A DNA stretch of 52,630 nt, the filler included, from Jimgerdemannia flammicorona (Eukaryota): the NCBI GenBank assembly GCA_003990765.1. It is 2 parts of 2 records of this genome, joined end to end, with 100 filler letters (N's around TTAATTAATTAA, not from the genome) between each part and the next. Parts side by side here need not be neighbours in the genome. Positions count along the whole stretch, not along the records: positions 26,369 to 52,630 come from RBNJ01000743.1; 1 more part is not named here. One strand, written 5' to 3'. Below are positions 2,384 through 52,630 of this stretch, piece after piece (the first letter of the stretch is position 1; every line of letters begins with the position of its first letter). A program made the position numbers and the translations under genes. The notes under the pieces were generated by a model. The model was not told the origin of the DNA. It made no database searches and was given only the letters and a program-made list of their open reading frames with translations.

Positions 2384-3753
2384 ATAGTAAGAGTTAAAGT
2401 AGAAGTAATAACCAAAATAATATCTAGCTATTTAGTAAATAATATAAATTAAACTAAAGATTTAAATGATTATTAATCTATAACTATGTAAAATTAATAA
2501 TAATAAAGAAGATTATTTGACTTTATAAATTTTTAAAGAAGTTAGAATATATTTCATAATATCCTATACTTATATATCTGATAAGATAACCAGTTATAAT
2601 TATTATAACAAAGAACTCTATATATTTTAATAAAATTAAATAAGTATTATTTTATTTAAGAATATATAAAAAAAATATATAATATATCTTAAATCTATTC
2701 TTATAAAGTATATAATTAATAATTTGCTTATTGAATAGAAGTATTGAGAATATATATATAAGTATATAATATCTATTGTGGCGTTGGTTATGTATAATGA
2801 ACTTCAACTACACAGCTCAATGTGTGCCACTGGTGAAGCACGCGATGGATAACTGAATGTGTTGGTGACGTTCACGGCGGTTACGGGTCGATGGTCACAT
2901 GATTGGCTCGTTCGATTTGTGTGATAACTGATAATAGCGGGACTTCGATTGTTCGTTGGCTCAGGATGTCAATGGCTCGATTGTTTAGTGGAAAAGGTGT
3001 TGTTGCTAACAGAGGGCGGTTATTATGCTGGCTAAGTTTCCTGGCGGCGATTAACTTGGCAGCGACGGTCTTGAATTTGTGCGGCGATGACGGGCTTGCT
3101 CGTTATGCGGTCAATTAAAGCGGGCGACGGTCTTGACTTTAAGCAGTTCGTGGCGCAGTAGGGAATCATTCGGGTCAACGGTTCGGTCGAACGTTCATTC
3201 TTAACTTGAGGGCGGGTTCCTGGTGGTCGTTTGAGTATCTTGGCGGGTCTTAGACTGTGGTCCTGCTTGGCTGGGTATCCTTGGGTTCCTTGGGTTTTTC
3301 GGGTCTTGAATCTCGAATGGCGGTCTCGAATGGTGGTCCAAATGGGGGTCTGGTCTTGAATCCTTGGGTTTCCAGGTCTTGAATCTCGAATGGCGGTCTA
3401 AATGCACAGCAGTCGTAGTCTTTGGTGGACTAGTGCAGCTTTTCTTAGCGGCGGGTCTTGAACATTTTCTTTCCGTGGCAAGAGAAAATTCTTTAACTCA
3501 AACTTCCGAGTGATCCGTTGCTTTAGATTGTTATCTTGTTCTCAGAATTTATCTGGTCTCTTGGAGGCAGTGAGGTTTCTTAGTAATCCTTTTTACTTTT
3601 AAACACAAGCTGACTGACTGAGGTTTATTCACTCTAAGAATATGGATTATTTATACAAGTTTGCTAGCTAGGGGGGAGGGGGGGCACGACTAAGGCTAAG
3701 GTATACTATGTTGTTGCAAACTTCGCTATGCTATTGGCTTGCATGATGTGAAG

Positions 3754-4050
3754 GGCTGACTTGCTGACAAGATGCTGAAAACGGTGGTACTGGGTAGCAA
3801 TGCTGGATTCAGTTGTGCTGGGTAGCAATGCTGGATTCAGATGAGCTGACTTGCTGATACAGACAGATATGGATGCGGCAATTGTTGCCAGAAGCGGTTG
3901 TGGAGGGTAGCAATGCTGAAAATGGACTTGCTGACAAAATGCTGAAAATGGTGGTACTGGGTAGCAACGCTGGATTCGGATGAGCTGACATAATTGCTGA
4001 TTGTTGCCAGAAACAGTTGTGGGGGGTGGCAATGCTGAGAATGGATGCTG
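3754..4050. repeat. Degenerate tandem repeats in U3 between the accessory ORF and the LTR TATA box
   Basis: Recurrent blocks GACTTGCTGACAA.ATGCTGAAAA.GGTGGTACTGGGTAGCAA.GCTGGATTC and ATTGTTGCCAGAA.C.GTTGTGG.GGGT.GCAATGCTGA. Confidence 0.75.
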
Positions 4051-4087
4051 ACTAAAAGCTTGGTTCTCACAGCTGATAGGCGGTACT

Positions 4088-5074
4088 CTAGAGGGAATAG
4101 TGCCATTCGTCCATGGTGGGCAAATCTTGCTGGGTTGCGATTTCTTCTTCATCATATCTCTCCTCAAAAGGGGGAAGCGCTGGCCAAGAGGTGAGGGGGT
4201 AGAAAAGTGGCCAGTCATCTTCAACAACATTCTCCAACCCTTGAACAGCTTGAATGCGGACAGAGGACTGGTAGACTCTCTGTTGCTCCTCTTCTTCTTC
4301 TGAAGACTTGTTAGTTTCAGTGTCAGAGGGGGTTTCTTCAGAGGCAGGGTCTTGGAGTTCTTGGGTTTCCTCTTTAAAGACAGGAACTTCTTGGGCTTCT
4401 TCTTGATTCGGTTCCCAAATGATGAGGTGTGAATTGTGGCTGTCAGGGTGGTGGGTGATTGGAGTAGCTCCAACAGATGTCTCTATAGTGATGGGCAGTC
4501 CTTCAAATATCTCCATGAGACTCATTAGGTGGCCTTGATGGTTGTCTCGGAGTGGGGTGGTGTAAAAACCTGGCTGAGTAGGTTTGGTTTGTTGGCTTCC
4601 TATGGCGATGCAGTTGCTGCCAATAGCATTGGCTACTTCAGATTCTATCCAGTCAGCATCTTCAGTTGAAAGGTGGGAGAGGCTGCCAGCTGTTACTCCT
4701 TGCAAGTATGCTATAGCCCAGGGAATATGGCGGAAGATTTGATGGACACGGAGGGCTCTCTTGATTAGCCAACTGGTGGTTAACATTTCGGCAATGAGGT
4801 CTTCCTGGTCACCTTCTTGAGTCTCATTGCAAAGGCGGTGTCCAATTTCATAGTCATGCCAGAGGGTCATTCGTTCAGTAGTGTCTTTGAGCTATTGGGT
4901 CATTATATACTGGTAGTTGATGAAGTGTCCAAGGTCCTCAGTGTAGAAGTTCAAGTGTTTGGAAGTATCTGGGCACCAGATAGCCTTCTTGATAGCTTCA
5001 AAGATCAGGGTCTTTGGGCCAGGCAAAGGGGTAGAGCGGCGGGAGGTCTGGTTGGTTCGGCGAATGGGAGGCAT
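4088..5074 (-). pseudogene. LTR-embedded accessory ORF (~328 aa, one internal TAG), helical N-domain plus acidic tail
   Basis: ORFs 4892-5188 and 4088-4870 are in frame with a single TAG between them. ATG at 5074 with TATTTAA ~55 bp upstream. Homologous to the ORFs at 30214-31311 and 49691-50788. Confidence 0.7.
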
Positions 5075-7278
5075 TGTGTGGTAGGTACTTAGTTCTTTGG
5101 TGCCGATCTCTGAGGCGAAGTAGGGTTCCTTAAATAACGTGGTCTTCATTTTGGCTCGGATCTTCTTGTCTTCTTTTGGGATAATCACCTAATGGGTCAG
5201 GCTGTCTATTTGATTGTCACGCCATTATGTCATCTGATCTTGTGGTCACAGGGTACTCCGAATTTGGGCAGGGTCAATTGTAGATGTCAAACTATCTATA
5301 TCATTACTTAATATATTACTTATCAGTAATATATAAATATTTAACTTATTTATAATAATATAAATACTCTTTTTTATCTATATTTAATCATCTTTATTAT
5401 ATATATTAGATTACTCTAGATAAAGTAAATCTAATAAGCTAAATTATATTAAATTATAAATATAAAATTAAGATTAATCAGAATTAGGTTTAGGAGTAAA
5501 ATTCTTTTATATAGAGTTAGGTTTAGGTTTAGGGTTAGGATTTGTATTAGGTTAGTTTAGGGTTTGTTAATGATTAGGTTTAGAGTTAATATTAATAAAA
5601 ATTGATTTTAAAGTTTAAAATAGAGAAAATTATTTATTTATAAATAATATTTTATATTAATAAGTTAAAAAATATAATTTTTTATAGTTGTTTTATAGTT
5701 ATATTTAGCTATAATATAAACTAAACTATATACTATATTATATAATATTTAATAATATTCTTAGCTAAAAATAATATATAAAGATAATAATTATTATTTA
5801 AGTTTTAATCTTTTAATCTTTATAAAATTAGAATAAAGTCTAATGAGTTACATATATTAATTAATTTACTCATAATATATATAATTAATAAATATTTACT
5901 ATTGTTAGATTTATATGAATAAGTTAATTTTAATAAAAGAATCTTCTTCTTTTTCTCTTTTTTAATATATATTATTATTTTTTGAGAGAATTTTATATTA
6001 TATAATATACTTTAATCTCAGATTGTAAAACACTCTATTTAAGACTATGGTCAAAAGCATGAATGACTGAAAGCAAATATATTTTTCATACTGAGCTGCA
6101 TTATTTTATTTGATATTCTTTGTAGACTTAAGGTATTAAATTATGTTTGATGTTTATATAAATTATAGGCCTAATTTATTTCAGTATCACATACTATTCT
6201 GCCTTCGGGATTCTCTCCGAATTCATTCTGTGACTTCAATATCGTCCTTCTCTGCCTCCCCATATATGGGCATTGGGTCGTTGAATATGTAATGAGTGGG
6301 TTCGTTAGAACACAAGTCAATGGTTGCAAGAATGTCTTGGGCACCGCGCGGGGGGGGGGGGGCGTAAGTTATCTCGGCGGGTCAAATCATGTCTTGGGCG
6401 TCTGGCGCTCTCATTTTGTATTAGCTAGATGACAATCCCTTTAGCATTGCCTATATCGATTATTGTTCAATTGCATCTATTTTTACACATACGCTTTATA
6501 CATATGCTTCACACATACATTCATCGCGCATTCACATCGCGTACTCGTTTTCGCAAACGCCCTCCCTCCCTTCTCTGTGTATCCATTCGCATGTGGGCCA
6601 GTTTCACCGCGGTTTTCTCGATTTTTTTTTTTTTCCCAAATACATACATTTGAACCTCAAGTCGTCCATCTATGCGGTTCTGAGGTTCTACGCGGTCGGT
6701 TATCGTCGTCATAGTTGGTCGGGCAGAAGTGTAGTTTTTCTCTATCATTACGGCTATACATTGATGATTGTCCACAAGGGGTTGAATAAGCGTATCTTCG
6801 AGTGAGTTGGGACACGAAAACCCATTATTACATGCTAAACCCATGCAGGATTTCATTGCAAAGAAAGGTGATACCTCTCATACGCATGGGATGGCTAAAT
6901 CATACTCCGTCACAGCGAGGGTTTCTTCTTGGGCTTCATTTATGAAACTTCTTTGTTTTTGAGCTACTTGTATGGACTTTGCTGCTAAAAAAATTTTCGT
7001 GGGTTTCACGACAGATTCTTTTTTAACATATATTGCCAACTATGGATGATCATCGATCATGTGGGGGTGGTGGGGTGTTATTTTTGTTTGAAGTGTTTTT
7101 GGGCGACGTAACTTGATGATATTTTATTTCACACATCCGACCTCTCGGTGAAGGGGATTTCAGCAAAGGAGAATTGAAGTCTCTGGTGTGTGACGTAACC
7201 TCTGATGCTATCGACCACCCCCATCATGTGGGATATGCAAAATCAAATATGGTAATTAAGTAGTGCGGGTCACTTGAT

Positions 7279-26368: not shown

Positions 26369-27167
26369 GGAGTTTCTTTGGGAATATGTCTCGAAATTTC
26401 TGAAGTAGTGGTCTGACATGGCTGTCAACTTTGGAAAAATCTTCTTCAGAGTTCTCAGGTTCTCCTTTGGATGGGCAGATGGAGATGGCAAAGAGAGGGC
26501 ATTTCTTGGCCAATTTCTTAAGTTGTAGCTTGTTGATGTGGGTGATCTTTGGTCCAGGATCACCAGAATTAAGTGGGTCCTTTTTGTCTTGTAGTTTGAA
26601 GTTGTGGTGTCCTTTCTTGATGATCAGAGAATAGTTTACCCAATCAATCATAAGGTTCTCTTATTTTAACTATAGAGTCCCAAGGATGATTTCATTGTCA
26701 GGAAGTGGTATGATTTGGAGGGTAACATGTACTTGGTAGTCACCAATTTAGAAGGGTAGATTGCAGACTTCTTTGCTAATAACATGTGAGGTTCTATCAG
26801 CTGTAGCAACTGCTTGAGTTTGCTATACTGGAGAGGTAAAGACCTTGAGTCTGTTGGCTGTCTCTTCATTGATGAAGTTGCCTGAGGCACCACTGTCTAT
26901 CATAATCTTGACAGGTGCTCAGTTGACAAAAGCCTTAAGTGTGAGCAGTTTGTCTGATTCAATGGTAGTGATTTCAGTTGTAAGAGCTTTCCTTCTATTG
27001 GTTCTTCTTTGTGCCAGTTCATTGATACAAGAGAAGTAATCATCAATTATTCGGGAAGAGTACATTCCAATGCCATGAGGGCATCAGCCACTTGGTACAT
27101 ATCCATTTTCGATCTTCTTGTAGAATTGTTCTTCTTTGCTCATGGTAGGTTGGGCTGGGGCCTTGTT

Positions 27168-27585
27168 TGATGAGCCAAATCCTTTGTATCCTCGGATAGT
27201 GGGCAGTAGTTCAGGGACTTCCTTGACTGTCAGGGTTGACTTGATTTTTTTGAATAGGATCTGGGTGATGCAGAAACCAATAGGGATCTTGAAGGGTGTC
27301 CAACTGTAGTTTCAGATGAGGACAATAATTTCACCTGTATAATCCTCATCAATGACTCCTCCTTCTACTGAGAGTCCTTTCAATACTAGGCTGCTGCAAC
27401 AGCATATTCTTCCAATATGTCCTTCAGGGATTTGGATGCTGATTCCTATATAGACTTGTTTGACTTCTTGGTTGGAAACTCTAGCTTCTTCAGCTGCATA
27501 CAGATCATATCCAGCTGCTTTTTGACTTTCTTTGGTTGGGGCCTTAGCAGTTTGTCTTAACTTGACAAAGTCCAGTGTTCTGGTG
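27168..27585 (-). pseudogene. dut: dUTPase domain of family 2 (copy 1)
   Basis: KAAGYDLYAAEEA, GRICCCSSLVLKG, GGVIDEDYTGEI, ITQILF, IRGYKGFGSS. Confidence 0.88.
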
Positions 27586-30213
27586 GTCAGGTTGTTGAGG
27601 TGGTGCAGAGTGGTAATAGTTGCTCATGTTGCTGTTTGGGGTTTCCGGTTAGGGCAGGCACTGGCCATGTATCCTATCTTTCGGCAATAGAAGCATGCTC
27701 TGCTTCTTCAGAGTTCATTCCTTTTGCCTTCGGTAAGTTTCTTAAAGGTACTTGGCTAGGTGGGTTCATGATTTCTGGTTGTCCAAGAGGTGGATGTAGA
27801 GGGAGCTCGAGATGCTTCATGCTTGGGTTCTTCTTTCTTGGTCCAAGTCTTTTCCTTATTGTTGAATTGCCTTTGAGGCAGAATTGGTCCAGCTGTTAGG
27901 ATTTGCTTGACCATAGTCTTGATTCTTGCCAGGCACCATTGTTGGTGATTACAACCAACTTGGCAGCCTTGTTCTCAGATTTTTCTAGTAAGCCATTCAG
28001 GCAGGGCATCAAATAAATGGTCTGCTCTTGTACCATTTCGTACTTCATCATTGGCGATATATCCTAGGCCAACAGTGTTCAGGAGTGACTCGAGTTTTGT
28101 ACAGAAGGTTTCGAATTCTTCTTTACCATATATATCAAATTTGAGGTTGCAGAGTTTTACTTGAGATTTGGCAATTATGGTTTTGCTGTGGTATTGAGCA
28201 ATTATGAATTGTTTAAGTCCAGGGGCTGCAAGATGGGCTCCATATCCTGGAGCATTATTTGCTGTATTCTGAGCAACTACTGCAGGTCAGGTATCCCATG
28301 TGAGGGGTTTTTCAAGAAGGGTTCACCACTATTCTTTGGCAGGTCCTTGGAGGAATGTAACAACTTAGCAGACATAGGCTGTAGTGGTAGCAAAGAGTTG
28401 TTCCAGAGTGTGGTCTTGATTGTTTGTCAGAACATGGTCAGCAACTCGCTCATTGGTCCATTGATTGGCTTCAAAGTTGGTATCAACTACACTAATGAAG
28501 CTTTGGACTTCTTGTGCAGTACCATTGAAGGTAGGTAGGCTCAGATTTTTGGTAGGTCAGGTCTGTTCAGCTAAGATAGTAATGGGTGCTGCCATTATGG
28601 CTATCTGGGCTGTGGGGTCTAGAATCTGTTGGTTTGCCATATTGTTTACTGGAGGCAGTTGGACTGCTGGTAGTGGTGTTACTGGTACTACTTGAGGTAC
28701 TGGTGCAGAGTGTGATGGGGTTCTTTGGGTCTGTGTAAGTTGCTGGAGTAGTAGTTGTGGGTCTGGAGTGAGGGCTTGACAGATAACTGTTTGTTGCTGT
28801 ATAGGTGTATTCTGTCCTGATAGAGGTACTTCTCCTTCGGTGGTATATCTGGGATTGAATTCACTGAGATACTCCTCCTCTTCTTCAGTTTGGTCCCCAT
28901 GTAATTGGGTTTGCTTGGTGTCAAAGTAGACAGAATCAGTTGTTTATCTGATTCAGATGGACTTAATTCAAAGTCAAGTTCAGGTTCAGTATTGGTTTCA
29001 GATTCAGGTAGGGCTGTAGCAGGGCCTGCTTCAGGTTCAGAGTCAGGTAGTTGATGAAGGGTTTCTCTTGCTTCTTCTTTAAGAATATGGCAGGCCTTGC
29101 TGTTCTGGAATCGGTAGTATAATGTGGTCTTGGTCCTGGTATGGTGAAAGTCGGTAGAGTTGAGCCACTTGACTACAGAGGCTTGGGCTTCATGAGGAAC
29201 TAAGGCTAGGAAGACTGCTGCTGGTTATCCTAGGTCGCTTGGATTTGTGGAGCTAACAAAACTCTTATTGAGAAGAGTAAAGAAGGCTTCAATAAGACCT
29301 TCTTCGTCTTGACTTGCTGGGTGTAGTGTAAGGAGTTCGGTGAATAGGGTTTCACCTATTTGCTGGTTTAACTGAAGTACTTCTTTCTTTGAATGAAGTT
29401 TATCCCACTTGTTGCAGATATAAAGGTCAAATTGTCTTTGTACATCAGGTTCAATTCTCTCCAGATTGTCAGATGGTTCAAGATAAATTCCAGTTTAGAG
29501 GTTGGGCTTTATACCAACTTGTAGGAATTCTCAGAAGGATTTGTAGCAGAGTGAGGAAGTGTCTTGAAGTGGAATTGGATTGTAAACCACTGCTACCAAG
29601 TTGTAAGAGGGTTGCTTTTTAGGGTAACCATTACATAGTTCTGGAAAGGTTTTCTAGAGGTTCTGGATATTCTGGAAGACCATTTTCTTATGGTCAGGAT
29701 CAATTTTGTATGGAGTACATCCTCTATGCTTATTGATTTCAAGATCAGATTGATGTCTCAACCAAAGTCTTTTTTTAGACTAGTTCTAGATGTTCAGATT
29801 TTCCGTATTTCAGGAAGTTCAAGAAACTAAGACCAGCTTAGTTGAATTGGTGTATCACTGCAGACAATACCCAATTAGGAAATTTCATGACAGAGTTAGG
29901 AGTAGGACCTAACAGAGAGTGGATTTACTTAAGAGTGGTTTGTGGGTTATTAAATAGATTTATTTGCTATTCATGATATTGCTATACTAGGAGTAGTTGT
30001 GTGGAGGGATATTGTAGGGAAGTGTTCAGGAATGTTCTTGTGTATTCGAGTCTGAGATTCTGAGGTCTGGGGGAGGGGGTATTTATACTAGTGAGGGGCT
30101 ATCTGGACTATACTGAATATAAATATAGCACTAAGTGCTCTGCTGAGTTGGAATGCAGTTATATAGTACAAGTGTGATCTGACTATACTATGACTGCTAG
30201 GCTATTTATAGGT

Positions 30214-31311
30214 TTAGGCACTGTCTGGGTAGTTTTCAATGACATCACCATCGATTGTATTATCTCTGATGAAGTAGTCATCTAGGAAGAGTGGTTTATG
30301 GATTACTTCTCCTTGTTCGCTGAGGTAATAATACATTGGAACTTCATCGCCATCCCACAGAATAGCATTGTCTGTCTCATATGCTGGATAAGGTGTTGGT
30401 GGGTGAAGGAGGGATGCATCATCTTCACTTTCATCAGGTTTGCTGTCTGCATACCTTCTGTAGATTACAGTACTATGAGTTGTGGGGTTGTAGTAAGCTG
30501 GTAACTGTAGTTCATATCGCTCATACTCAGGTGGTGGAGTGGTTGGTTCAATCTCGAGGATTGTCTGGAGGTATAGGTTGTGTTCTCCAGTCTCTTCATT
30601 GTAGTTGAAGTAATCAGAAATAAATGCAGGTTGGTATTTATACCAGTAGTCATTGTCCCAATAAGTCTTGTATGCTGTTATGAATTGTTGTAAGTTCATC
30701 AGCAAGGTTGGTAGTGTGATCAGGGTTGGCAGAGATCCTTGGCTAGAGGTCATGTCAGTGTCAGAGAGATCATTGTCTTCTGCTTCATCTTCATCGAAGT
30801 GGATTATATCATAGATATCCTTCATAGCATATCCAACTTAGGGTATTTGCAGAATGTGATCATTGGAGTGTGGGAAGGTTCTGTCTGTGGTTTCAATGTA
30901 CTCAAGGTACTTGTGGTTGAGTTCTTGTATCATGTCGTCGATTTGGCCATAGGACAGGGTAGCAACCATTTCAGCTGTAGTAACTCAGAGGTGGGGAATA
31001 ACAGTGCTATACTTATAGAAGAGTTCTCGATGTTTATGGGCGATGAGCTTCTGGTGTTGAGATATCTGAATAATGTCTGTATCATGATAGTGTTCGATCA
31101 TGTCTTCCAGGAGGCAGTCAATCTGGTAGTAGCTTGAGATTTGTCCGATTCAGTGGGCCTTGCTAAGTATGTTCAGAGCATTTCATTGGACTTCCACGAA
31201 GTAGAGGGGTGCTAGGCAATGGATATTCATGAGAGGCAGAGGGGGTGTAGCTCTATTGACAATGGCATTCCAAATGTCAGTGTGAATATGGGTATAGATC
31301 TCGGTGATCAT
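30214..31311 (-). pseudogene. LTR(U3)-embedded accessory ORF, 365 codons, acidic and Tyr-rich
   Basis: ATG at 31311 is in frame with ORF 30214-30825. 1,098 bp with no indels relative to 49691-50788. Stops are TGA/TAA at CGA/CAA positions. TATATA-like box upstream (~31381-31388). Confidence 0.8.
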
Positions 31312-31599
31312 GTTTGTGTATTTGGAAGTTGTGGTTGTTATTTGTTTTGGTTCTCTGATTCGACATATCTCAGTGCTCAGTATATATACATTTGGTCCTG
31401 ATTGGTAAGATTCTGTTTGTTTAAATCTTGTGTTCTGTGACTTTGTATTGACTCATCTTTGTATGCTGTGACTTCGGTTTGACTCAGCTTCATGATCAAG
31501 CAGAGAATTTCCAGATTTGTTCAGAGGTCACATGTGATTTCAGTGGCTTGTTCAGAGGGTGATGTGTAATTTCGGTGGCTTGGTGGTTGTACACTTACA

Positions 31600-36000: not shown

Positions 36001-36711
36001 CCGCGCAGCGACACCCCCATGGTGGTCGGAAACTTCTCAGCTGTCAGGTCCGTGTCTGAATCAGCGGCGGGGACGATGGACTTGAGGGCGGCTGGGGTTG
36101 AGGGCGTGTTGTTGCGGAGCTGCTCCAGGGCCTCGGGCGTGTAGGAGGAAGAGGGGGGGGTCAGAGTCGCTTGGTCGAGGTGGTCTGGGACAAGGTGTCT
36201 GGAGAGGGAGGGGCGGTGAGTGGGGGTTAGTTGTGTGGGGGACGGGTGTGGAAAAGTGAGGGAAGACGTACTGGGGGAGCTGGAGTTTGCGCTCTTTGGC
36301 TAGTCGTTTGCTGGCGGCGGATTTTTTGATCTGGATGGACCCTTCTTCGCCTTCCTCCTGTGTTCGAATGGGTGGCGAATGTGATTGCTCGTTATCAAAC
36401 TGTCCGTTGATGTTAGTCAACGAGGTGAGCTACTTGCCTCGTCTCCAAAACTGAGATTAACCGAAACTGACTTCAAAGTCGATTTGGTTTTGGGCTTCTT
36501 CTCTTTCTTGGTTTCCTCGAATATTGGCTCCACGATCTCCAAAGCAACCGAATCGACTAGAGATTGCAATCAGACGTTGTTAAATTGCTCCTTATCTGAG
36601 TCGACTGTGTGAGCTAAACTATGCGCATTGAAACACACCAGCCATGTCTGTGGGGCTATCATGGTCTTTCCTGCGGATGTTTCTTGACTTTGCAGGCTTC
36701 TTGTTGAACAT
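33054..36711 (-). CDS. GC-rich sequence DNA-binding factor (GCFC2/PAXBP1/Ntr2-like) spliceosome disassembly factor, multi-exon, apparently intact
   Basis: Start MFNKKPAKSRNIRRK. Motifs IPDAGAIHAAKKKRELAR, EEDFISLD, ESRLVREEDE, EMTRWETEAIRKG, YYQEVRNYVADLGEFLDAKFPELEKIE, VDEFGR, LFSDVTEDFRTLTAVKSKFETWKSDFYDDYIKAYGSLSLPGAFEFFIRCELVTWSP, LVEKVLIPRI. GT-AG introns. Stop TGA at 33054-33056. Confidence 0.88.
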
Positions 36712-41139: not shown

Positions 41140-41195
41140 TAATGCTCTCAAATGAATTGAATCAAATTGGGATCAAATTTGATTCAATTTGATTT
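41140..41195. mobile_element. Left end of a second copy of the hAT-like MITE, interrupted by an LTR
   Basis: TAATGCTCTCAAATGAATTGAATCAAAT matches the TIR at 2081. Confidence 0.65.
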
Positions 41196-41414
41196 TGTTA
41201 GAGGGTTGCTTTTTAGGGTAACTGTTACATAGTTCTGGAAGGGTTTTCTGGAAGTTCTAGATATTCTGGAAGACTATTTTCTTATGGTCAAGATCAATTT
41301 TGTATGGAGTATATCCTATACTTATTGATTTCAAGATTGAGTTGATGTCTCAACCAAAGTCCTTTTTTGGACTAGTTCTGGATGTTCAGAATTTCTGTAT
41401 TTCAGAAAGTTCAA

Positions 41415-44400
41415 TATAAGTGCACAACCTCCAAGCCACCAAAATTGCATGGTATCCTCAGAACTAATTTGGAAACCATATGCGAGACTACAAAACAAGT
41501 TACTGAAGAGATCATCTGGTTACACGAAATATGCTAGCAAGCATGAGAACTCACCACCAAGATACAAGAATACTAGAAGAAGTACTACAACCACAAGACT
41601 AACTCTGAATCACTATAACTAGCTTGGTGTACTGTACTATTATAAAAGGAAACCAAAAGTACCAAACTCAAATTGAGACAAGAAGAACTCTATCTTATCT
41701 ACCAAAAGGTTCATGAACTATACTTATCAACTCAAGACCAAGATACACTGTGACTATACAAGACCTCATTACTTAGCAGAAGTAAAATGTATTTGAACAA
41801 CTCCATTTGCTCTATCTGTATCACCTCTGTTGGAGAGTGACAGATGCTTCATCTGAACTCAAGAAAGCCAACATCATCGAAACCAATCTCAAGCCATCCA
41901 TGTGACAGATATTACTACTAGAAATTGCCTCAGATTACAGAAAATATCACTTCTGAAAGGTTCAAACTCCCAGCTACAACATTGGGAGCCCTTGTCCTAG
42001 ATGAGAATGGCCAGTCCTCACAAATATGCCAGCAGACCAAAAAAAAAGAAAACCAAGACCTGTTATCCTTGTGCAACTACCGCCACCAAGGACAGCCTTA
42101 ATCTTACAAGAGATAGAAGTGATGATACCTTGAAACTGATGATATCAGAAGTCAGAAAACTGCTCAGACTTTGTTAGAGATGATGTCATTGATAGTGATA
42201 TCATCGAAGACTACCCAGACAGTATCTAAATCTATAAATAGCTTAGCAGTCATAGTATAGTTAGATTAGCCTTGTATAATATAACTGTAAACTGACTCAG
42301 CAGTCAGATGATCTCTTGATATATCAGATCACACTTATACTATGTGACTATATTTCGACTCAGCAAGACACTTAGTGCTATATCCATATTTAGCATAGTC
42401 CAGATAGCCCCTCACTAGTATAAATACCCCCTCTCCCAGACCTCAGAATCTCAGACTTGAAAGACTTAAAAGACTTGAACAATCTGAATACAACTCCTAA
42501 GCACTTCTCCACAATACCTCTTTATATAACTACTTCTAGTATAGCAATATCATGAATAGTGAATAAACCTATTTAATAATCCACAAACCACTCTTAAGTA
42601 AATCTGCTCCCTGTTAGGTCCCACTCCTAACTCCATTATGAAATTTCTAATTAGGCATTGTCTGTAGCGATATGCTGATTCAACTAAGCTGGTCTTAGTT
42701 TCTTAAACTTCCTGAAATACAGAAAATCCTGAACATCCAGAACTAGTCTAAAAAAGGACTTTGGTTGAGATGTCAACCCAATCTTAAAATCAATAAGTAT
42801 AGAGGATGTACTCTATACAAAATTGATCTTGACTATAAGAAAACAGTCTTCTAGAACATCCAGAACTTCCAGAAAACCCTTCCAGAACTACATAACAGTT
42901 ACTCTAAAAAGCAACCCTCTTACAACTTGGTAGCAGCAGTTTACAATCCAATTCCACTTCAAGACACTTTCTCACCCTACTACAAACCCTTCTGAGAATT
43001 CCTACAAGTTGGTATAAAGCCCAACCTCTGAACTGAAATTTATCCTGAATCATCTGACAATCTGGAGAAAATTGAACCTGATGTACAAGGACAATTTGAT
43101 CTCCATATCTGCAACAAGTGGGATAAACTTCAGTCAAAGAAAGAAATACTCCAGTTAAATCAGCAAATAGGCAAAACCTTATTCACCAAACTCCTTGCTC
43201 TACACCCAGTAAGTAAAGATGAAGAAGGTCTTATAGAAGCCTTCTTTACTCTTCTCAACAAGAGTTTTGTCAGCTCTACAAATCCAAGTGACCTAGGACA
43301 ACCAGCAGTAGTCTTTCTAGCCTTAGTTCCTCATGAAGCTCAAGTCTCTATAGCCAAGTGGCTCAACTCTACTGACTTTTACTGTACCAGGACCAAGACT
43401 GCACTATACTACCGATTCCAGAACAGCAAGGCCCACTATATTCTTAAAGAAGAAGCAAGAGAAACCCTTCATCAACTACTCAACTCTGAACCTGAAGCAG
43501 GCTCTACTACAGCTCTATCTGAATCTGAAACCAATACTGAACCTGAACTTGACTTTGAATTAAGTCCATCTGAAATCAGATATACAACTGATTCTGTCTA
43601 CTTTGATGCTGAGCAAACCCAATTACATGGGGATCAAACTGAAGAAGAGGAGGAGTATCTCAGTGAATTCGATTACAAATACACCACCAAAGGAGATGTA
43701 CCTCCATCAGGACAGAATATACCTACATAGCAACAAACAGCTATCTATTAAGCCCTTACTCCAGACCCACAACTACTACTCCAGCAACTTATACAGACCC
43801 AAAGAACACCCTCACACTCTGCATCAGTACCTCAAGTAGAACCAGTAACACCACTATCAGTAGTCCAACTGCCTCTAGCAAACAATATGGTGAACTAACA
43901 GATTCTAGACCTCATAGTCCAGGTAGCCATAATGGTAGCAACCATTACTACCTTAGCTGAACAGACCCAATCTACCAAAAATCTGAGTCTACCTACCTTC
44001 AATAGTACTGCACAAGAAGTCCAAAGCTTTATTAGTATAGTTGACACCAACTTCAAAGCCAATCAATGGACCAATGAGTGAGTTGCTGACCATATTCTGA
44101 CAAACAATCAAGACCACACTCTGGAACAACTCTTTGCTACCACTACAGCCTATGTCCACCAAGTTGTTATATTCTTCTGAGGACCTGCCAAAGAATAGTG
44201 GTAAACCCTTCCTGAAAAACCCCTCATATAGGATACCTGATCTGCAGTAGTTACTCAGAATGCAGCAAACAATGCCCCAGAATATAGAGTCCATCCTGCA
44301 GCCCCTGGACTCAAACAACTCATGATTGCTCAATACTGCAGCAAAACTATGATCACTGAATCTCAAGTAAAACTCTGCAACCTCAAATTTGATGTACATG

Positions 44401-47400
44401 ACAAAGAGGAATTTGAAACCTTCTATACAAAACTTGAGTCACTCCTGAACACTATTGGTCTAGGATATATCACCAATGATGAAGCATAAAATAGTACAAG
44501 AGCAGACTATTTATTTGATGCACTACCTGAATGGCTTACTAGAAAAATCTGAGAACAAGGCTGCTCAGTTGGTTGTGATCACCAACAATAGTGCCTGGTA
44601 AGAATCAAGACTATGGTCAAGTAAATCTTAACAGCTGGACCAATTCTGCCCCAAAGACAATTTAACAATAAGGAAAAGACTTGGACTAAGAAAGAAGAAC
44701 CCAAGTATGAAGCATCCCAAGCTCCCTCCACATTTACCTCATGGACACCCAGAAATCATGAATCCACTCAGCCAAGTACCTTCAAGAAACTCACTGAAGG
44801 TGAAAGAAATGAACTTCAAAGAAGTGGAGCATACTTCTATTGCTAAAAGATAGGACATATGGCCAGTGCCTGCCCCAACTGAAAACCCCAAACAGCAATA
44901 TGAGTAACTATTACTACTCTGCACCACCTCAATAACCTGACCACTAGAACACTAGACTTCATCAAGTTAAGGCAAACTACCAAGGCTCTAACCAAAGGAA
45001 GTCAAAAAGCAGCTGAATATGATCTGTATGCAGCTGAAGAAGCTATAGTTTCTAACTGAGAAGTCAAATAAGTCTATATAGGAATTAGTATCCAAATCCC
45101 TAAAAGATATATTGGAAGAATATACTGTCACAGCAGCCTAGCATTGAAAGGACTCTCAGTAGAAGGAGGAGTCATTGATGAGGATTATACAGGCAAAATT
45201 ATTGTCCTCATCCAAAACCACAGTTAGACACCCTTCAAGATCTCTATTGGTTTCTACATTGTACAGATTCTATTCAAAAAAATTGAATCAACCCTGACAG
45301 TTAAGGAAGTCCCTGAACTACTGCCCACTATTTGAGGATTCAAAGGATTTGGCTCATCAAACAAGGCCCCAGCCTAACCTACTATGAATAAAGAAGAACA
45401 ATTCTATAAGAAAATCGAAGATGGATATGTACCAAGTGGCCGATGCCTCCATGGTATTGGAATGTACTCTTCCTGAATGATTGATGATTGCTTCTCTTGT
45501 GTCAATGAACTGGCTCAAAGAAGAACTAACAGAAGGAAAGCTCCTACAACTGAAATCACTACCATTGGATCAGACAAACTGCTTACACTTAAAGCTTTTG
45601 TCAACCAAGCACCTGTCAAGATTATGATAGACAGTAGTGCCTCAGACAACTTCATCAATGAAGAGACAGCCAACAGACTTAAGGTCTTCACCTCTCTGGT
45701 ACAACAAACTCAAGCAGTTGCCACAGCTGATAAAACCTCACATGTTATTAGCAAAGAAGTCTGCAATCTACTCTTCTGAATTGGTGACTACATATCAAGT
45801 ATATGTTACCTTCCAAATTGTACCACTTCCTGATAATGAAATCATTCTTGGAACCCCATGGCTGAAATAAGAGAACCCTATAATCAATTGGGTAAACCAT
45901 TCTCTGACCATCAAAAAAGGATGCCACAACTTCAAACTGTAAGATGAAAAGGACCCACTTAGTTCTAGTAACTCTGGACCAAAGATCACTCACATCAATA
46001 AGCTCCAACTTAAGAAATTGGCCAAGAAATGCCCTCTCTTTGCCATCTCCATCTGCCCATCCAAAGGAGAACCTGAGAACTCTGAAGAAGATTTTTCCAA
46101 AGTTGACAGCTATATCAGACCACTACTCCAGAAAGCCTGAGATACATTTCTGAACCGAACCACAGAACCATCTGTATCTGTCATTATTAATGACCAAGAA
46201 GAATACAAAGTTAAACAAATCCTCAACAAACACAGCCACAAGAACCATCCAAATGGTACAACAACACCAGAATAAATTAGAAGGCCCTGATGAGGACATT
46301 GAAAGCTAAGAAGGGGAAAGTTGTAAGCACACAACCTCCAAGCCACCAAAATCACATGGCATCCTCAGAACTAATTTGGAAACCACATGCAAGACTACAA
46401 AAAAAGTTACTGAAGAGATCATCTGATTGCATGAAATATACCAGCAAGTACAAGAACCTACCACCAAGATACAAGAATACTAGAAGAAGTACTATAACCA
46501 CAAGACTGACTCTGAACCACTATAACTAGTTTAGTGTACTATACTATTACAAAAGGAAACCGAAAGTATCAAACTCAAATTGAGATAAGAAGAACCCTAT
46601 CTCATCTACCAAAAGGTTCATGAACTATACTTATCAACTCAAGACTAAGATATACTGTGACTATACAAGACCTCATTACTTAGCAGAAGTAAAACACATT
46701 TGAACAACTCTGTTCGCTCTATCTGTATCACCTCTATTGGAGAGTAACAAATGCTTCATCTGAACTCAAGAAAGCTGACATCATCAAAACCAATCTCAAG
46801 CCATCTATGTGACAGATATTACTACTAGAAATTGCCTCGGATTATAGAAAATATCATTTCTGAGAGGTTTGAACCCCCAGTTGTGACATTGGGAGCCCTC
46901 ACCCTAGATGAGAATGGCCAGTCCTCACAAATGTACCAACAGACCAAAAAAAAAGAGAACTAAGACCTGTTATCCTTGTGCAACCACTGCCACCAAGGAC
47001 AGTCTTAATCTTGTAAGAGATAGAAGTGATGACACCTTGAAACTGATGATATCAGAAGTCAGAAAACTGCTCAGACTTTGTCAGAGATAATGTCATCGAT
47101 GGTGATGTCATCAAAGACTATCCAGATAGTATCTAAACCTATAAATAGCTTAGCAGTCATAGTATAGTTAGATTAGCCTTATACAATATGACTGTGAACT
47201 GACTCAGCAGTCAGACAATCTCTTGACATATCAGATTATACTTGTACTATGTGACTGTATTCTGACTTAGTAAAGTACTTAGTGCTACATCCATATTTAG
47301 CATAGTCCAGATAGCCTCTCACTAGTATAAATACCCCCTCTCCTAAACCTCAGAATCTCAGACTTGAAAGACTTGAAAGACTTGAACAATCTGAACATAA

Positions 47401-47832
47401 CTTCTGAGCACTTCTCCACAATATCCCTTTACATAACTACTCTTAGTATAGCAATATCATAAATAGCGAATAAACCTATTTAATAACCCACAAATCACTC
47501 TTAAGTAAATCTGCTCCCTATTAGGTCCCACTCCTAACCCCATCATGAAATTTTCTAATTGGGTATTGTCTTCAGTGATACGCTGATTCAACTAAGCTAG
47601 TCTTAGTTTTTTGAACTTCCTAAAATATGGAAAATCCTGAACATCTAGAACTAGTCTGAAAAAGGACTTTAGTTGAGATGTCAATCTGATCTTGAAATCA
47701 ATAAGCATAGAGAACATACTCCATATGAAATTGATCTTGACCATAAGAAAATAGTCTTCCAGAACATCCAGAACTTCCAGAAAACTCTTCCAGAACTATG
47801 TAACAGTTACTCTAAAAAGCAACTCTCTTACA
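41415..47832 (+). mobile_element. Complete non-autonomous family-2 chromovirus: 1.51-kb LTRs (41415-42924, 46322-47832), gag-CCHC-dUTPase-protease, RT/RH/IN deleted, chromodomain stub, PPT
   Basis: 5-bp TSD TTCAA (41410-41414 / 47833-47837). PBS TGGTAGCAGCAG at 42928. Jump at ~46151 from the pre-RT spacer to SVIINDQEEYKVKQILNK (chromodomain start). PPT AAGAAGGGGAAAG before the 3' LTR. Confidence 0.9.
44945..45360 (+). pseudogene. dut: dUTPase domain of family 2 (copy 2)
   Basis: KAAEYDLYAAEEA, SSLALKGLSVEGGVIDEDYTG, GFKGFGSS. Confidence 0.85.
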
Positions 47833-48109
47833 TTCAAAAAACTAAGGCCAGCTTAGTTGAATTGGCATATCACTGCAGACAATATCCAATTAGGAAATTT
47901 CATGATAGGGTTAGGAGTGGGACCTAACTAGGAGCAGATTTACTTAAGAGTGGTTTGTGGGTTATTAAATAGGTTTATTTGCTATTTATGATATTACTAT
48001 ACTAGAAGTAGTTGTGTGAAGAAATATTGTGGGGAAGTGCTTCAGGAGTTGTATTCAGATTGTTCAGGTCTGAGATTCTGAGGTCTGGGAGAGGGGGTAT
48101 TTATACTAG

Positions 48110-49292
48110 CTCCTTTCTCTACTATCTTACTGGTCACAAGGTTTGGTAGGCAACCTTCCGAGTCCCCTTTCCCCTAATATTCCCCCCTCTACCTTGGGTT
48201 AGTTTGCTGTACCTGTAGGGGCATGGTGGGAGGAGGGCAAGAGTGATGAGTTGTCTCTTTATCAGTATCGGATTGGTGCTTCCTCTACTTTTTCACAGAT
48301 TTTGGTGCCTTCAGCTGTATCTGGGGTGTACCTGTTTTAGTGCAGTGCCTTCTTCCTTTTGCTGTCACCAACAAGGAGTTGTCTCAGTATGTCTTAGGCT
48401 ACATAGGGAGTTGGCCAATCTTGGGTATCAAGTGCTCAGTGTAGGTTACCTGCAGGTCCATAGTACCTGTAGTAGGGCCCTCTGGCTTTGGCAAGCTTTC
48501 CGGCAAGTACAGTTCTGACATAGGTGACTGTTTTTCGGGTAATGTCAGGATGGGAGGGGAGATGGCCATCACAGATAGGAGGAAGGGTGATTATGGTGGA
48601 CCAGTAGGGTGCCAGGCTGGGAGCGGTCATTGGGGCTGGGGCAGGTGCTGCTTCAGTGGGGCCTTTTGATTAGTGTGATGTGGTTAGATGGTAGGTGTCA
48701 CTCTCGGCTTCTTTTGGCAATTTGTGGGGTTGGGCCCTGGTCGTCAGAGGGGGTCGGGGGGCCTGAGGCTACCCATTTCAAGCATCTTGGCTGCACTCAA
48801 CTGGAACTAGAAGCTGATATGGCAATGTGATCGAGGCCTGCAGACTTGAGTAGTGGGATATTGGGAGTCTCCTCCCGCCTCACGTATGAGTCCTCTACTC
48901 ACCTTGACTGGGAGAACCAGGCCCTACCCACCATATTGTGCTTTGATGAGGGTTTTTTCTTTGCCTGTCATTCTCTTTGAGGTGGCAGGAGCTATTCTAT
49001 TTGGCTCAGGCATGGCCTTGTACATATGTTGGGTTCTTGGGTGTGCGCTTTCAGTCATTGGTGTATGGCTGGATTTCCCCTGGTGGTAGGGAGAGCATGG
49101 TATGCAGAATGAGGTGCGGGCTACTTTGTCCTGCTGCGCCTGGCATGGTCGAGCTGCTGGACAATAGCTAGCCTAGGTTAATGGGGGGGCAGTGCTTAAT
49201 GGGTAGTGGGGGAGGGTTTTGGCCTATATAGTCTAGATTCTCTTCCAATAAAAATCTGCAGGACATAGAGTCCATAAAATAAATAAAAAAAA
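48110..49292 (+). mobile_element. ~1.2-kb poly(A)-tailed non-LTR retroposon, copy 2
   Basis: 19-bp TSD GAG(G/A)GGGTATTTATACTAG (48091-48109 / 49293-49311). AATAAA plus A tail. The plus frame resembles a decayed LINE ORF2 C-terminus (PLPWVSLL..LFHRFWCLQLYLG..FC..HSTCSRALWLW). Confidence 0.82.
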
Positions 49293-49402
49293 GAGAGGGT
49301 ATTTATACTAGTGAGGGGTTATCTGGACTATACTTAATATAGATATAGCACTTAGTACCTTACTAAGTCAGAATACAGTCACATAGTATAAGTGTGATCT
49401 GA

Positions 49403-52400
49403 TGTAAGCGCACAACCTCCAAGCCACCGAAATTACATGTCACCCTCTGAACAAGCCACTGAAATCACACATGACCTCTGAACAAATCTGGAAATCACCT
49501 GCTTGATCATGAAGCTGAGTCAAACCGAAGTCACAGCACACAAAGCTGAGTCAATACGAAGTCACAGAACATAGAATTTACATAAATGGAATCTTACCAA
49601 TCAGGATCAAATACATATATACTGAGTACTGAGATGCGTCGAATCAGAGAACCAAAACAAACAACAACTATAACTTCCAAACATACAAACATGACCACTG
49701 AGATCTATACCCATATCTGTACTAACATTTGGAATGCCATTGTCAACTGAGCCACACCCCCTCTACCCCTCATGAATATCCATAGTCTAGCACTCCTCTA
49801 CTTCGTGAAAGCCTGATAGAATTCTCTGAACATGCTTAGCGAGGCCCACCGAATTGGACAAATCTCAAGCTACTACCAGATCGGCTGCCTCCTGGAAGAC
49901 ATGATCAAACACCACCATGATATAGACATCACCCAGATGTCTCAACACCAGAAGCTCATCGCCCACAAACATTGAGAACTCTTCTATAAGTATAGTACCA
50001 TTATTTTCTGCCTCCGAGTTACTACAGCTGAAATGGTTGCTACTCTGTCCTATAGCCAAATTGATGACATGATACAAGAACTCAACTACAAGTACCTTGA
50101 GTATGTTGAAACTACAGACAGAACCTTCCCACACCCCAATGATCATATCCTGCAAATGCCCCAAGTTGGATATACCATGAAGGATATCTACAATATAATC
50201 CACTTTGATGAAAACAAAGCAGAAGACAATGATCCCTCTGATGCCAACATGACCTCTAGCCAAGGATCTCTGCTAACCCTGATCACACCACTAACCTTGC
50301 TGATGAACTTACAACAATTCATAACAGCATATAAGACTTATTGGGACAATGACCACTGGCATGAATACCAATCCACATTTACCCCCAATTACTTCAACTA
50401 TAATGAAGAGACCGGAGAACACAACCTGTACCTTCAGACAACCCTCAAGATCGAACCAACCACTTTACCACCTGAGTACAAGCAATATAAACTACAGTCA
50501 CCAGCTTACTACAACTCCATGACTTATAGTACTATAACCTACAGAAGGTATACAGATAGCAAATCTGATGAAAGTGAAGATGATGTATCCCTCCTTTGCC
50601 CATCAACACCTTATCCAGCATATGAGACAGATGATGCCATCTTGTGGGACAGAGATGAAGTTCCAATATATTATTACCTTAGCAAACAAGGAGAAGTAAT
50701 TCATAAACCACTCTTCCTAGACAACTACTTCATCAGAGATGATGCAATCGATGGTGATGTCATCGAGGACTATCCAGGTAGTGTCTAAATCCATAAATAG
50801 CCTAACAGTCATAGTATAGTTAGATTAGCCTTATATGATGTAACTGTAAACTGACTCAGCAGCCAGACAATCTCTTGATATGTCAGAACACACTTGTACT
50901 ACATGACTGCATTCCAACTCAGCAAGGCACTTAGTGCTACATCCATATCTAGCATAGTCCAGATAGCCCCTCACTAGTATAAATACCCCCTCCCCCAGAC
51001 CTCAGAATCTCAGACTCGAATACACAAGAACATTCCTGAATACTTTCCCACAATATCCCTTCACACAACTACTCCTAGTATAGTAATATCATGAATAGTG
51101 AATAAACCTATTCAAATAACCCACAAACCACCCTTAAGTAAATCCACTTCCCATTAGGTCCCACTTCTAACTCCATCACGAAATTTCCTAATTGGGTATT
51201 GTCTGCAGCGATACGCCAATTCAACTAAGCTGGTCTTAGTTTCTTGAACTTTCTGAAATATAGAAAATCCTGAACATCCAGAACTAGTCCAAAAAGGGAC
51301 TTTGGTTGAGACATCAACCCGATCTTGAAATCAATAAGTATAGAGGATATACTTGATATGAAATTGATCTTGACCATAAAGAAAACGGTCTTCCAGAATA
51401 TCCAAAACCTCCAGAAACCCTTCTAGAACTATGTAATGATTACCATAAAAAGCAACCCTCTAACAACTTGATAGCAGTGGTTTACAACCCAATCCCACTT
51501 CAAGATGCTTCCTCACTCTGCTACAAACTCCTCTGTGAATTTCTACAAGTTGGTATAGAGCCCAACCTCTGAACTGGAATTTATCCTGAACAATCTGACA
51601 ATCTGGAGATAATTGAACCTAACATATAAGGATAATTTGACCTCCATACCTGCAATAAGTGGGACAAACTTCATTGAAAGAAAGAAGTACTCCGATTAAA
51701 CCAACAAATAGGCGAAACCCTATTTACTGAACTCCTTGTATTACACCCAGCAAGTCAAGATGAAGAAGGTCTTATTGAAGCCTTCTTTACTCTTCTCAAT
51801 AAGAGTTTTGTTAGCTCCACAAATCCGAGCAACTTAGGACAACCAGCAGCAGTCTTTCTAGCCTTAGTTCCTCATGAAGCCCAAACCTCTGTAGCCAAGT
51901 GGCTCAACTCTACCAACTTTCACTATACCAGGACCAAGACCGCATTATACTACTGATTCCAGAATAGCAAGGCCCACCATATTCTTAAAGAAGAAGTAAG
52001 AGAAACCCTTCATCAACTATCTGACCCTAAACCTGAAGCAGGCCCTGCTACAACCCTACCTGAATCTGAAACCAATACTGAACCTGAACTTGACTTTGAA
52101 TTAAGTCTATCTGAAATCAGATATATAACTGATTCTATCTACTTTGATGCCGAGCAAACTCAATTACATGGGGACCAAACCGAAGAAGAGGAGGAGTATC
52201 TCAGTGAATTTGATCCCAGATATACCACCAAAGGAGAAGTATCTCCATCAGGACAGAATACACCTATACAGTAACAAACAGTTATCTATCAAGCCCTCAC
52301 TTCAGACCTACAACTACTACTCCAGTAACTTACACAGACTCAAAGAACCCCATCACACTCTGCACCAGTACCTCAAGTAGTACCAGTAACACCACTACCA

Positions 52401-52630
52401 GCAATCCAACTGCCTCCAGTAAACAATATGGCAAACTAACAGATTCTAGACCTCACAGCCTAGGTAGTCATAATGGCAGCAACCATTACTGCCTTAGCTG
52501 AACAGACCCAACCTACCAAAAATCTGAGCCTACCTACCTTCAATGGTACTGTACAAGAAGTCCAAAGCTTCATTAGTGTAGTTGACACCAACTTTGAAGC
52601 CAATCAATGGACCAATGAGCGAGTTGCTGA
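49403..52630 (+). mobile_element. Ty3/Gypsy family 2, copy 3 (5' part): 2,063-bp LTR (49403-51465), PBS, leader ORF and start of gag
   Basis: TGTAAGCG..CTAACA. PBS TGATAGCAGTGG at 51469. Colinear with the reverse complement of 28440-31599. Confidence 0.9.
49691..50788 (+). pseudogene. LTR(U3)-embedded accessory ORF, 365 codons
   Basis: ATG at 49691 is in frame with ORF 50033-50788. Four TGA/TAG stops, no frameshift. CATATATA box at ~49614. Lies upstream of the LTR TATAAATA (~50978) and GTGAATAAACC (~51098). Confidence 0.82.

Follow-up and report, generated by a model that had tools for sequence, protein, structure and literature searches.

A once-open 365-codon reading frame in the U3 of giant long terminal repeats of Jimgerdemannia flammicorona

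Can the long terminal repeat (LTR) of a fungal retrotransposon hold a gene of its own? Since LTRs are regarded as non-coding and masked ahead of gene prediction, any gene lying within them would be overlooked systematically. The question is raised here by a eukaryotic stretch of 52,630 nucleotides from Jimgerdemannia flammicorona (assembly GCA_003990765.1; the whole of it is called the window below), which is rich in transposable elements (TEs) and in which two 2.0-kb LTRs of one retrotransposon family (family 2) each contain a frame of 1,098 nt in their U3 (unique 3′) region. We propose, with moderate confidence, that these frames are decayed copies of a genuine protein-coding gene located wholly in the U3 of a Ty3/Gypsy-type element, that is, of an accessory gene borne by the element. 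This proposal joins direct observations to steps that follow from established LTR replication and to a conjectured accessory role. The gene is best read as a new positional variant of the known "additional open reading frames (ORFs)" of retrotransposons, and neither as a new category nor as a demonstrated conserved family.

Giant LTRs and the frame in their U3

Self-BLAST recovered, over its full extent, one repeat in two copies at 49403-51465 (+) and 29602-31599/31600 (−), and the same two LTRs also appeared in self-comparison as an inverted pair of 1461 nt at 87%. By combining self-comparison with a four-way LTR alignment, we resolved family 2 into three elements, A, B and C, whose parts are given here with their primer-binding sites (PBS) and polypurine tract (PPT).

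49403..51465, + strand: element C, 5′ LTR, ORF-bearing variant; 2,063 nt, with a TGTAAG start and a CTAACA end, followed by a PBS-like site and gag
49691..50788, + strand: 365-codon U3 frame, copy C; 1,098 nt, internal stops at codons 20, 42, 43 and 95
50978..50985, + strand: LTR TATA box TATAAATA, kept in all four LTR copies
51101..51106, + strand: LTR polyadenylation signal AATAAA, downstream of the frame
51466..52630, + strand: PBS-like site ACTTGATAGCAGTGG of element C and the beginning of its gag region, which continues past the window end
29602..31599, − strand: element B, 5′ LTR, ORF-bearing variant, with a 63-nt deletion after the ORF
30214..31311, − strand: 365-codon U3 frame, copy B; 1,098 nt, internal stops at codons 43, 54, 109 and 158
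26397..29601, − strand: element B, internal region with PBS, gag with CCHC knuckle, dUTPase and aspartyl protease (Pfam)
41415..42924, + strand: element A, 5′ LTR, variant without the ORF; 1.5 kb
42925..46321, + strand: element A, internal region with gag, dUTPase and protease, ending in the polypurine tract AAGAAGGGGAAAG
46322..47832, + strand: element A, 3′ LTR, directly after the PPT AAGAAGGGGAAAG

Alignment confirmed what an earlier reading of this DNA, made from the sequence alone (the sequence-only reading), had described: each 2.0-kb LTR of family 2 contains an indel-free frame of 1,098 bp, which lies upstream of the LTR TATA box (TATAAATA, 50978) and of the AATAAA (51101). The copies in B and C are collinear with 0 indels between them. 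Their internal stops are, again as described, of the transition type and mostly at different codons; they fall on 7 codons in total, codon 43 alone being affected in both copies, and every one of them can be reached from CGA, CAA or TGG by a single transition. The frame begins 288 nt downstream of the LTR 5′ end and its stop lies ~190 nt upstream of the LTR TATA box. The TATA-like box that the sequence-only reading ascribed to the frame itself is a plain TATATA string upstream of the ATG. By eye, an A at position −3 and an A/C-rich leader are present both in this ORF and in the ORF of a second family (family 1), which is treated below.

The repeats at 49403-51465 and 29602-31599 are real 5′ LTRs of a Ty3/Gypsy-type element. 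Marks of such an element found in family 2 are TG..CA termini, a PBS-like site, a PPT and a gag/dUTPase/protease region. Termini of the form TGTAAG...CT(A/T)ACA occur in B, in C and in the 3′ LTR of A, while the 5′ LTR of A begins TATAAG, a TG>TA transition, and the PBS-like ACTTGGTAGCAG stands directly 3′ of the LTR in A, B and C. The internal region of element B matches dUTPase (E 1.1e-27) and gag-asp_proteas (E 7.1e-08) in Pfam, and the CCHC knuckle of its gag was recognised in translation. Element A (41415-47832, +) is a complete insertion with a 5-bp target-site duplication (TSD), TTCAA, at 41410-41414 and 47833-47837; the same repeat at both ends together with a TSD was thus seen for the ORF-less variant. 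No Pfam domain of reverse transcriptase, RNase H or integrase was found in the family-2 copies of the window. After its protease, element A has a short stretch that by eye resembles the end of a chromodomain, with no confirmation from Pfam, and the element looks like a non-autonomous deletion derivative.

The ORF is carried by two of the four complete family-2 LTR copies in the window (those of B and C, not the two of A). In the four-way alignment, what the LTRs of A have in common with those of B and C is limited to ~35 nt at the start and ~740 nt at the end, the latter including the TATA box (50978) and the AATAAA (51101); between these common ends lie ~1.29 kb in B and C and 715 unrelated nt in A. 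The LTR of A retains the last ~19 codons of the frame (tblastn of residues 229-247 of P0003, a relative introduced below, E 7e-4), and because it keeps these codons, sequence comparison suggests that the ORF-less LTR variant descends from an ORF-bearing one.

The unit has no more than its 3′-terminal ~740 nt in common with the proven LTRs of element A, and the window holds no ORF-bearing 3′ LTR. Both facts would suit a reading in which the LTR has been wrongly delimited: the true LTR would be shorter, the frame would lie in the internal region between it and pol, and B and C would be tandem or truncated arrangements. We regard this as very improbable. B and C begin at exactly the same TGTAAG terminus although their flanks are unrelated; their first ~35 nt are the 5′ terminus of the proven element A LTRs, where it comes after the PPT in the 3′ copy and after the TSD in the 5′ copy; and the last ~19 codons of the frame lie inside the repeat of LTR-A. 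For these three reasons, the LTR terminus is secure.

Several observations concern the surroundings of these elements. Between 41195 and 49402 lies a nest of insertions, in which an older inverted family-2 LTR (41195-41414, 47833-48109 and 49293-49402) is interrupted by element A, with its TSD TTCAA, as well as by a 1.19-kb repeat and element C, which by eye sits in the fragment 49293-49402. The 1.19-kb repeat (48110-49292 and 19215-20398, 81% identity, GC 0.50), one copy of which lies inside the old inverted LTR, is possibly a solo LTR of a further family. Element B is cut by a scaffold gap at 26269-26368, an artificial join made of 44 N, TTAATTAATTAA and 44 N with poly-T/poly-A flanks, the left side of which is another contig.

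Coding history of the frame

The frame as observed is real and far above chance. It contains 4 stops, compared to 8-40 when that stretch is read in any of the other five frames (11-40 for copy C), and shuffles of the LTR (n=2000) gave a longest open frame of 216 codons, with a mean of 97. When the un-deaminated base (C or G) is placed at each transition difference between the copies, one stop is left, at codon 20, where copy B reads AGA; using the base of B at the transversion differences yields an inferred pre-decay protein with 0 stops.

A profile of the two window copies, searched against 1.84 billion protein cluster representatives, returned three proteins, P0003, P0004 and P0005. P0004 (128 aa, N-terminal, E 2e-65) is stop-free, has the same start Met, is identical to the inferred pre-decay protein at 114 of 128 residues, and has R, R, W, R, R and R where the window copies have stop codons. 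P0003 (247 aa, E 3e-99), likewise stop-free, spans residues 115-365 and matches the inferred pre-decay protein at 155 of 247 residues (63%), the only gaps being two in-frame gaps of 2 codons. The third protein, P0005 (E 8.4e-6, 6 stretches), was rejected as repeat-inflated noise, since 0 of 24 Pfam rows had a stretch that passed alone. In neutral simulations run to the same amino-acid divergence, matched to that of P0003, the frame was stop-free in 4 of 1000 runs at kappa 2 and in 14 of 1000 at kappa 10. Thus, the frame was once open and two stop-free relatives exist among about 15 billion proteins, whereas the copies in the window are now dead.

Contig pieces of public runs cover all 30 bins of 49000-52000 both in a soil-metagenome run (X1, 3276 pieces) and in a run of organism A (X2, 471 pieces). 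These pieces are mostly 85-95% alike to the window and therefore come from relatives and not from the same genome; judged by this coverage, the whole stretch including the ORF is multi-copy in soil metagenome X1 and in organism A. Among the differences of these pieces from the window, T>C and A>G exceed the reverse direction, which fits a deaminated window copy, and a loose end at 49452 reproduces the LTR-A variant. In a further run, X8, guessed to be RNA, depth is found mainly over 51020-51420 and 49404-49706 with little over the ORF, and we draw no conclusion from it; raw-read run X23 contributed 0 reads. One X8 contig joins the LTR end at 51465 to 49212, in the 1.19-kb repeat, via 18 other letters, and may represent another family insertion into the 1.19-kb repeat in a relative. 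For the DNA of the protein relatives, scans of metagenome contigs produced 21 (A2) and 145 (A3) pattern matches and scans of viral contigs 10 and 73, of which 0 were confirmed in either set. A viral-contig scan with the dUTPase-protease region returned 9 loci that matched in the dUTPase part only (35-47% identity) and that we took as unrelated viral dUTPases.

The two window copies have diverged almost entirely by transitions. Of the 1098 sites of the frame, 137 differ between them, 133 by a transition and 4 by a transversion; almost no CpG is left, and CpA/CpC were hit at ~23-24% compared to ~4% for CpT. The bias has the signature of deamination, either driven by methylation or resembling repeat-induced point mutation (RIP), and the classical RIP indices do not register it. 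We rejected dN/dS between B and C as uninformative, 133 of the 137 differences being transitions and the position-normalised rates being similar. The Nei-Gojobori ratio of 0.31 in the frame, against 0.64 and 0.90 in the off-frames, is not trustworthy because the 33:1 transition bias confounds it. By eye, the indels between B and C (one of 63 nt and four of 1 nt) all fall in the 3′ third of the LTR, and the indel-free ORF was set aside as a weak sign of selection, the 288 nt before the ATG being likewise without indels.

A number of results weigh against the proposal that the frame was an accessory gene of the element. The per-codon-position rates between B and C (0.259, 0.203 and 0.293, C/G-normalised) are similar, the ORF is 87.5% conserved between them as against 89-90% in other LTR parts, and the B-C divergence shows no purifying selection and looks neutral. 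Just 2 credible family-2 relatives were found among the 1.84 billion cluster representatives; both are gene-caller ORFs on short contigs of ~1 kb, and open copies are subject to ascertainment, protein databases taking in open frames only. No Pfam family matched the family-2 protein at E ≤ 1, and PDB profile searches with A4 and A2 gave 0 matches at E ≤ 1. The ESM Atlas returned no usable feature match for P0003 or for P0006, a relative of the family-1 ORF, the structure rows of P0003 having TM ≤ 0.30, and the AlphaFold2 models (mean pLDDT 37.1 for A4 and 32.4 for A2) were too poor for a fold search. The only candidates for an ORF-bearing element are incomplete at the 3′ side, where a second LTR would lie, since B ends at the scaffold gap and C at the edge of the window. 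Furthermore, element A transposed with ORF-less LTRs, and the ORF is therefore not needed in cis; this mobility fits a trans-acting factor and a dispensable passenger alike.

A passenger of this kind would be captured or new sequence in a hypervariable U3, open because the active copies are young and useless to the element. Such an origin would agree with the orphan state of the frame, which has neither family nor fold in searches of Pfam, PDB and the cluster representatives, with the lack of visible selection between B and C, and with the modular U3, since LTR-A swapped ~1.29 kb including nearly all of the ORF for 715 unrelated nt and still transposed. We nevertheless consider a passenger unlikely. 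P0003 is stop-free at 63% identity with in-frame gaps only, an outcome reached in 0.4-1.4% of the neutral simulations; P0004 keeps the start codon; several open relatives exist for another, independent U3 ORF with a comparable build; and the element of LTR-A, as a non-autonomous deletion derivative, could use factors supplied in trans. Even a mere passenger would show how modular the U3 is, with ~1.3 kb swapped for 0.7 kb of unrelated sequence.

These results also set limits to what the sequence-only reading had claimed for the frame. Its term "conserved" is too strong for a protein with 2 credible relatives in 1.84 billion representatives and with window copies that diverged as neutral pseudogenes. 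Of the selected U3 accessory protein that it had proposed, the formerly intact coding frame in the U3 and the dissimilarity to env hold, whereas the selection finds no counterpart in the neutral divergence of B and C. The transactivator or anti-silencing role that it had suggested would be compatible with the composition of the protein.

A second U3 frame and the question of common descent

Family 1 is represented in the window by one unit, with the following features.

2777..5291, − strand: family-1 unit, ~2.5 kb, probable solo LTR; single copy in the window, GC 0.48, with AT-rich flanks
4088..5074, − strand: frame of 328 codons in the family-1 unit, interrupted once, by a TAG at codon 61
3758..4060, − strand: tandem repeats that separate the ORF stop from the TATA box; 3758-3820 versus 3925-3987 at 90%
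3618..3670, − strand: TATAAATA/AATAAA core of the family-1 unit; 87-89% with 1862-1921 and 1426-1485

The family-1 ORF lies upstream of TATAAATA (3655) and AATAAA (3629), in the same layout as in family 2, and it too has stop-free relatives: P0006 (325 aa, 75% identity, 99% coverage, same start Met), P0008 (324 aa), P0012 (331 aa) and P0010, which is on a 19.4-kb contig. The ORF and the TATA/AATAAA layout had been described correctly for this ~2.5-kb unit, but its status as an LTR, which had been taken as given, is an inferred one. What supports it are TG..CA-like ends and the ~55-nt TATA/AATAAA core. Self-comparison revealed no second copy of 2777-5291 in the window, no retroelement domain lies beside it in 1-8154, and the AT-rich flanks contain no clear TSD, so that neither direct repeats around an internal region nor a solo LTR with a TSD was seen. 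From its sequence features, the unit is a probable solo LTR of another family, an assignment that is reasonable yet unproven. We count its ORF as a second case of the arrangement, analogous in build, with common descent not demonstrated.

The ~55-nt core, TAGCTAGCAAACT..TATAAATA..GAGTGAATAAACCTCAG, recurs at 87-89% in three otherwise unrelated LTR-like units on the − strand (1426-1485, 1862-1921 and 3618-3670), as a promoter/poly(A) module that was retained while the other LTR parts were replaced. The unit at 1426-1485 precedes, on the same strand, a gag-like ORF (~400-1215, −) of a further LTR element, with the PBS-like TTGGCTGGTGA upstream; this ORF had no Pfam match at E ≤ 0.01 and no tblastx similarity to the family-2 gag.

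The U3 proteins of both families have a two-part build. A near-neutral N-terminal part of 130-155 residues, predicted to be helical in low-confidence models, is followed by a tail of 170-220 residues with a net charge of −30 to −36, an isoelectric point (pI) of 4.1, 9-12% Pro and 7-15% aromatic residues; the corresponding values for the family-2 tail are −34 to −36, pI 4.1, 9-11% Pro and 15% F+W+Y. The long acidic tails noted from the sequence are therefore present in both. Neither protein contains a transmembrane-like stretch (maximum Kyte-Doolittle 19-residue mean ~1.05), and the absence of a transmembrane segment or signal peptide is in keeping with the statement that they are not env.

The sequence-only reading had gone further and aligned the two proteins in three blocks, as members of one conserved accessory-gene family of two retrotransposon families. 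Such an alignment can be drawn, but it lacks significance: BLASTP of the window copies against the family-1 ORF gave a best E of 0.17-0.24, on a 15-residue C-terminal stretch, and the segment with the claimed 30-aa block scored 11.2 bits (E 47). Profile-profile comparison, set beforehand as the test that could refute the claim, failed to join the two. An hhalign comparison of the two small alignments, whose profiles are very shallow (Neff 1.3), returned a probability of 0.8% and an E of 0.07 on a short C-terminal motif, EDDxxLxxPxTxxPA. When restricted to the N-terminal parts, hhalign produced a collinear alignment of 112 columns with a score of 14.2, which was reached by 25 of 150 column shuffles.

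Smith-Waterman comparison of P0004 with the N-termini of P0006 and P0012 gave scores of 54 and 59, respectively, against 29±5 for shuffles; none of 1000 uniform shuffles and 1-3 of 1000 windowed ones did as well. This pairwise signal is borderline, however: P0004 scored 45 against the reversed sequence of P0006 (real 54), and so high a control means that the shuffle test overstates the signal owing to composition and helical periodicity. Against P0006, copies B and C from the window scored at the shuffle mean, with 616 and 359 of 1000 shuffles, respectively, reaching their scores.

Homology of the two ORFs thus draws on their common and unusual place in the U3 upstream of a TATA box and AATAAA, their shared two-part build, the Smith-Waterman scores of P0004 (54 and 59 versus 29±5), the collinear alignment of ~112 columns, and the common EDDxxLxxPxTxxPA motif (hhalign E 0.07). 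Set against these are the BLASTP values (E 0.17-0.24), the hhalign probability of 0.8%, the N-terminal score of 14.2 that 25 of 150 shuffles attained, the behaviour of B and C against P0006, the reversed control of 45 and the shallow profiles (Neff 1.3). We therefore view descent from one family as doubtful, though still a contender; at the level of sequence, the two U3 ORFs do not show themselves as one protein family.

Possible roles, known systems and neighbouring features

Reverse transcription of LTR elements copies the U3 into both LTRs at each transposition. A frame in the U3 is therefore the ORF closest to the 3′ end of the genomic RNA, behind pol and the polypurine tract; every transposition doubles it into both LTRs, and solo LTRs retain it. 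A gene in this position also adjoins the promoter and the poly(A) signal of the element. Under the accessory-gene reading that we favour, the protein would serve the element by acting in trans. The family-2 product would comprise a helical N-terminal part of ~140 residues and an acidic, aromatic and proline-rich tail of ~220 residues that is probably disordered. Its transcript could be a subgenomic or spliced RNA from the 3′ part of the element, or could start within the U3, and in either case would end at the LTR's own AATAAA. As to what the protein might do, our leading specific guess, made by analogy, is a regulator that works in the nucleus, where it would activate the LTR promoter or counteract silencing by means of its acidic-aromatic tail; even so, the odds are against this guess.

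A bolder version would make each giant LTR a self-contained cassette, with a U3 start, an ORF and its own poly(A), that produces a trans-acting nuclear factor shared by the family. We hold this to be a long shot. If it were true, full elements, non-autonomous derivatives and solo LTRs would all still produce the factor, a regulatory gene in the style of a "complex retrovirus" would exist in a fungal retrotransposon, and two LTR families of one genome would have gained the gene, by separate origin or by exchange. More generally, if the protein regulates transcription or silencing, retrovirus-like accessory regulation would extend to fungal retrotransposons, and such a regulator could help to explain the mobilisation of non-autonomous derivatives such as element A in the TE-rich genomes of Mucoromycota.

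The nearest positional precedents come from retroviruses. The sag gene ("LTR ORF") of mouse mammary tumour virus (MMTV) is encoded in the U3 of a vertebrate retrovirus, and its product is a type II membrane glycoprotein. The frame described here is similar in that it is a complete coding frame in the U3 upstream of the LTR promoter elements. It differs in its fungal host and in that the ORFs have no transmembrane segment and no Pfam similarity; of the features of Sag, the position in the U3 was found, while a membrane anchor or similarity to Sag was not. In spumaviruses and in human immunodeficiency virus (HIV), the accessory genes tas/bet and nef, respectively, lie at the 3′ end, 3′ of pol and env, and run into the U3. 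Tas is a trans-acting regulator with an acidic activation region and its own internal promoter. These genes resemble the present frame in their place 3′ of pol, and a Tas-like protein is our favoured functional model by analogy; however, they overlap the U3, whereas the frame lies wholly within it, and we found no sequence or fold similarity between them. The acidic-aromatic tail would be compatible with a role such as that of Tas/Bel1, to which no Pfam match points. Our search of full-text literature, with most subscription journals outside its reach, met genes of the U3 or "LTR ORF" kind in MMTV and other retroviruses alone; for LTR retrotransposons of fungi, or any others that are not retroviruses, it returned none.

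Among retrotransposons, the closest counterparts are the additional ORFs (aORFs) of LTR elements, which include sense aORFs between pol and the 3′ LTR and which, in the portion of the review at hand, are placed in the internal region (Vicient & Casacuberta 2020, PMC7264820). The likeness to what is described there lies in an extra orphan sense ORF after pol, present in several copies and without database similarity. In contrast to those ORFs, the boundary formed by the PPT and then TGTAAG is here upstream of the ORF, so that it belongs to the U3, occurs twice per element and is kept in solo LTRs; it is inside the LTR, 288 nt past the 5′ terminus, and not in the internal region. An "add. ORF" of unknown function also appears in a figure legend on fungal chromoviruses (PMC2864245), and the same source describes dUTPase-containing chromoviruses in Postia, Phanerochaete and Tuber. 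The carrier element in the window likewise has a dUTPase, located between gag and protease; this likeness concerns the carrier and not the ORF, and the available text of that source reports no LTR-borne gene (PMC2864245). The CERV protein of the C. elegans element Cer1 is an extra retrotransposon protein reported to act in nuclear export of genomic RNA (PMC10309623). It resembles our proposed product as an extra protein that serves its element, in a different host. An RNA-handling role, as for CERV, would be the alternative to the nuclear regulator suggested above.

Outside the LTR units, the window contains further features. A very large gene with sacsin domain and BTB occupies ~8000-16588 (+) in two long frames, 8155-12594 and 12572-16588, probably connected by a short intron near 12.5-12.6 kb. 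Among named sequences, its protein comes closest to one from Jimgerdemannia flammicorona (Endogonales), with 40% identity, and next to proteins from Glomeromycota; judged by this one gene, the source is probably a soil fungus of the Mucoromycota type. To the left of the scaffold gap, a fragment of reverse transcriptase at 24079-24462 (+; RVT_1, E 4e-12) belongs to another decayed retroelement. ORF pieces at 33632-36299 (−), in the GC-richest part of the window, match NTR2 (E 3e-8) and weakly GCFC (E 0.0085), and probably belong to an intron-containing splicing-factor gene.

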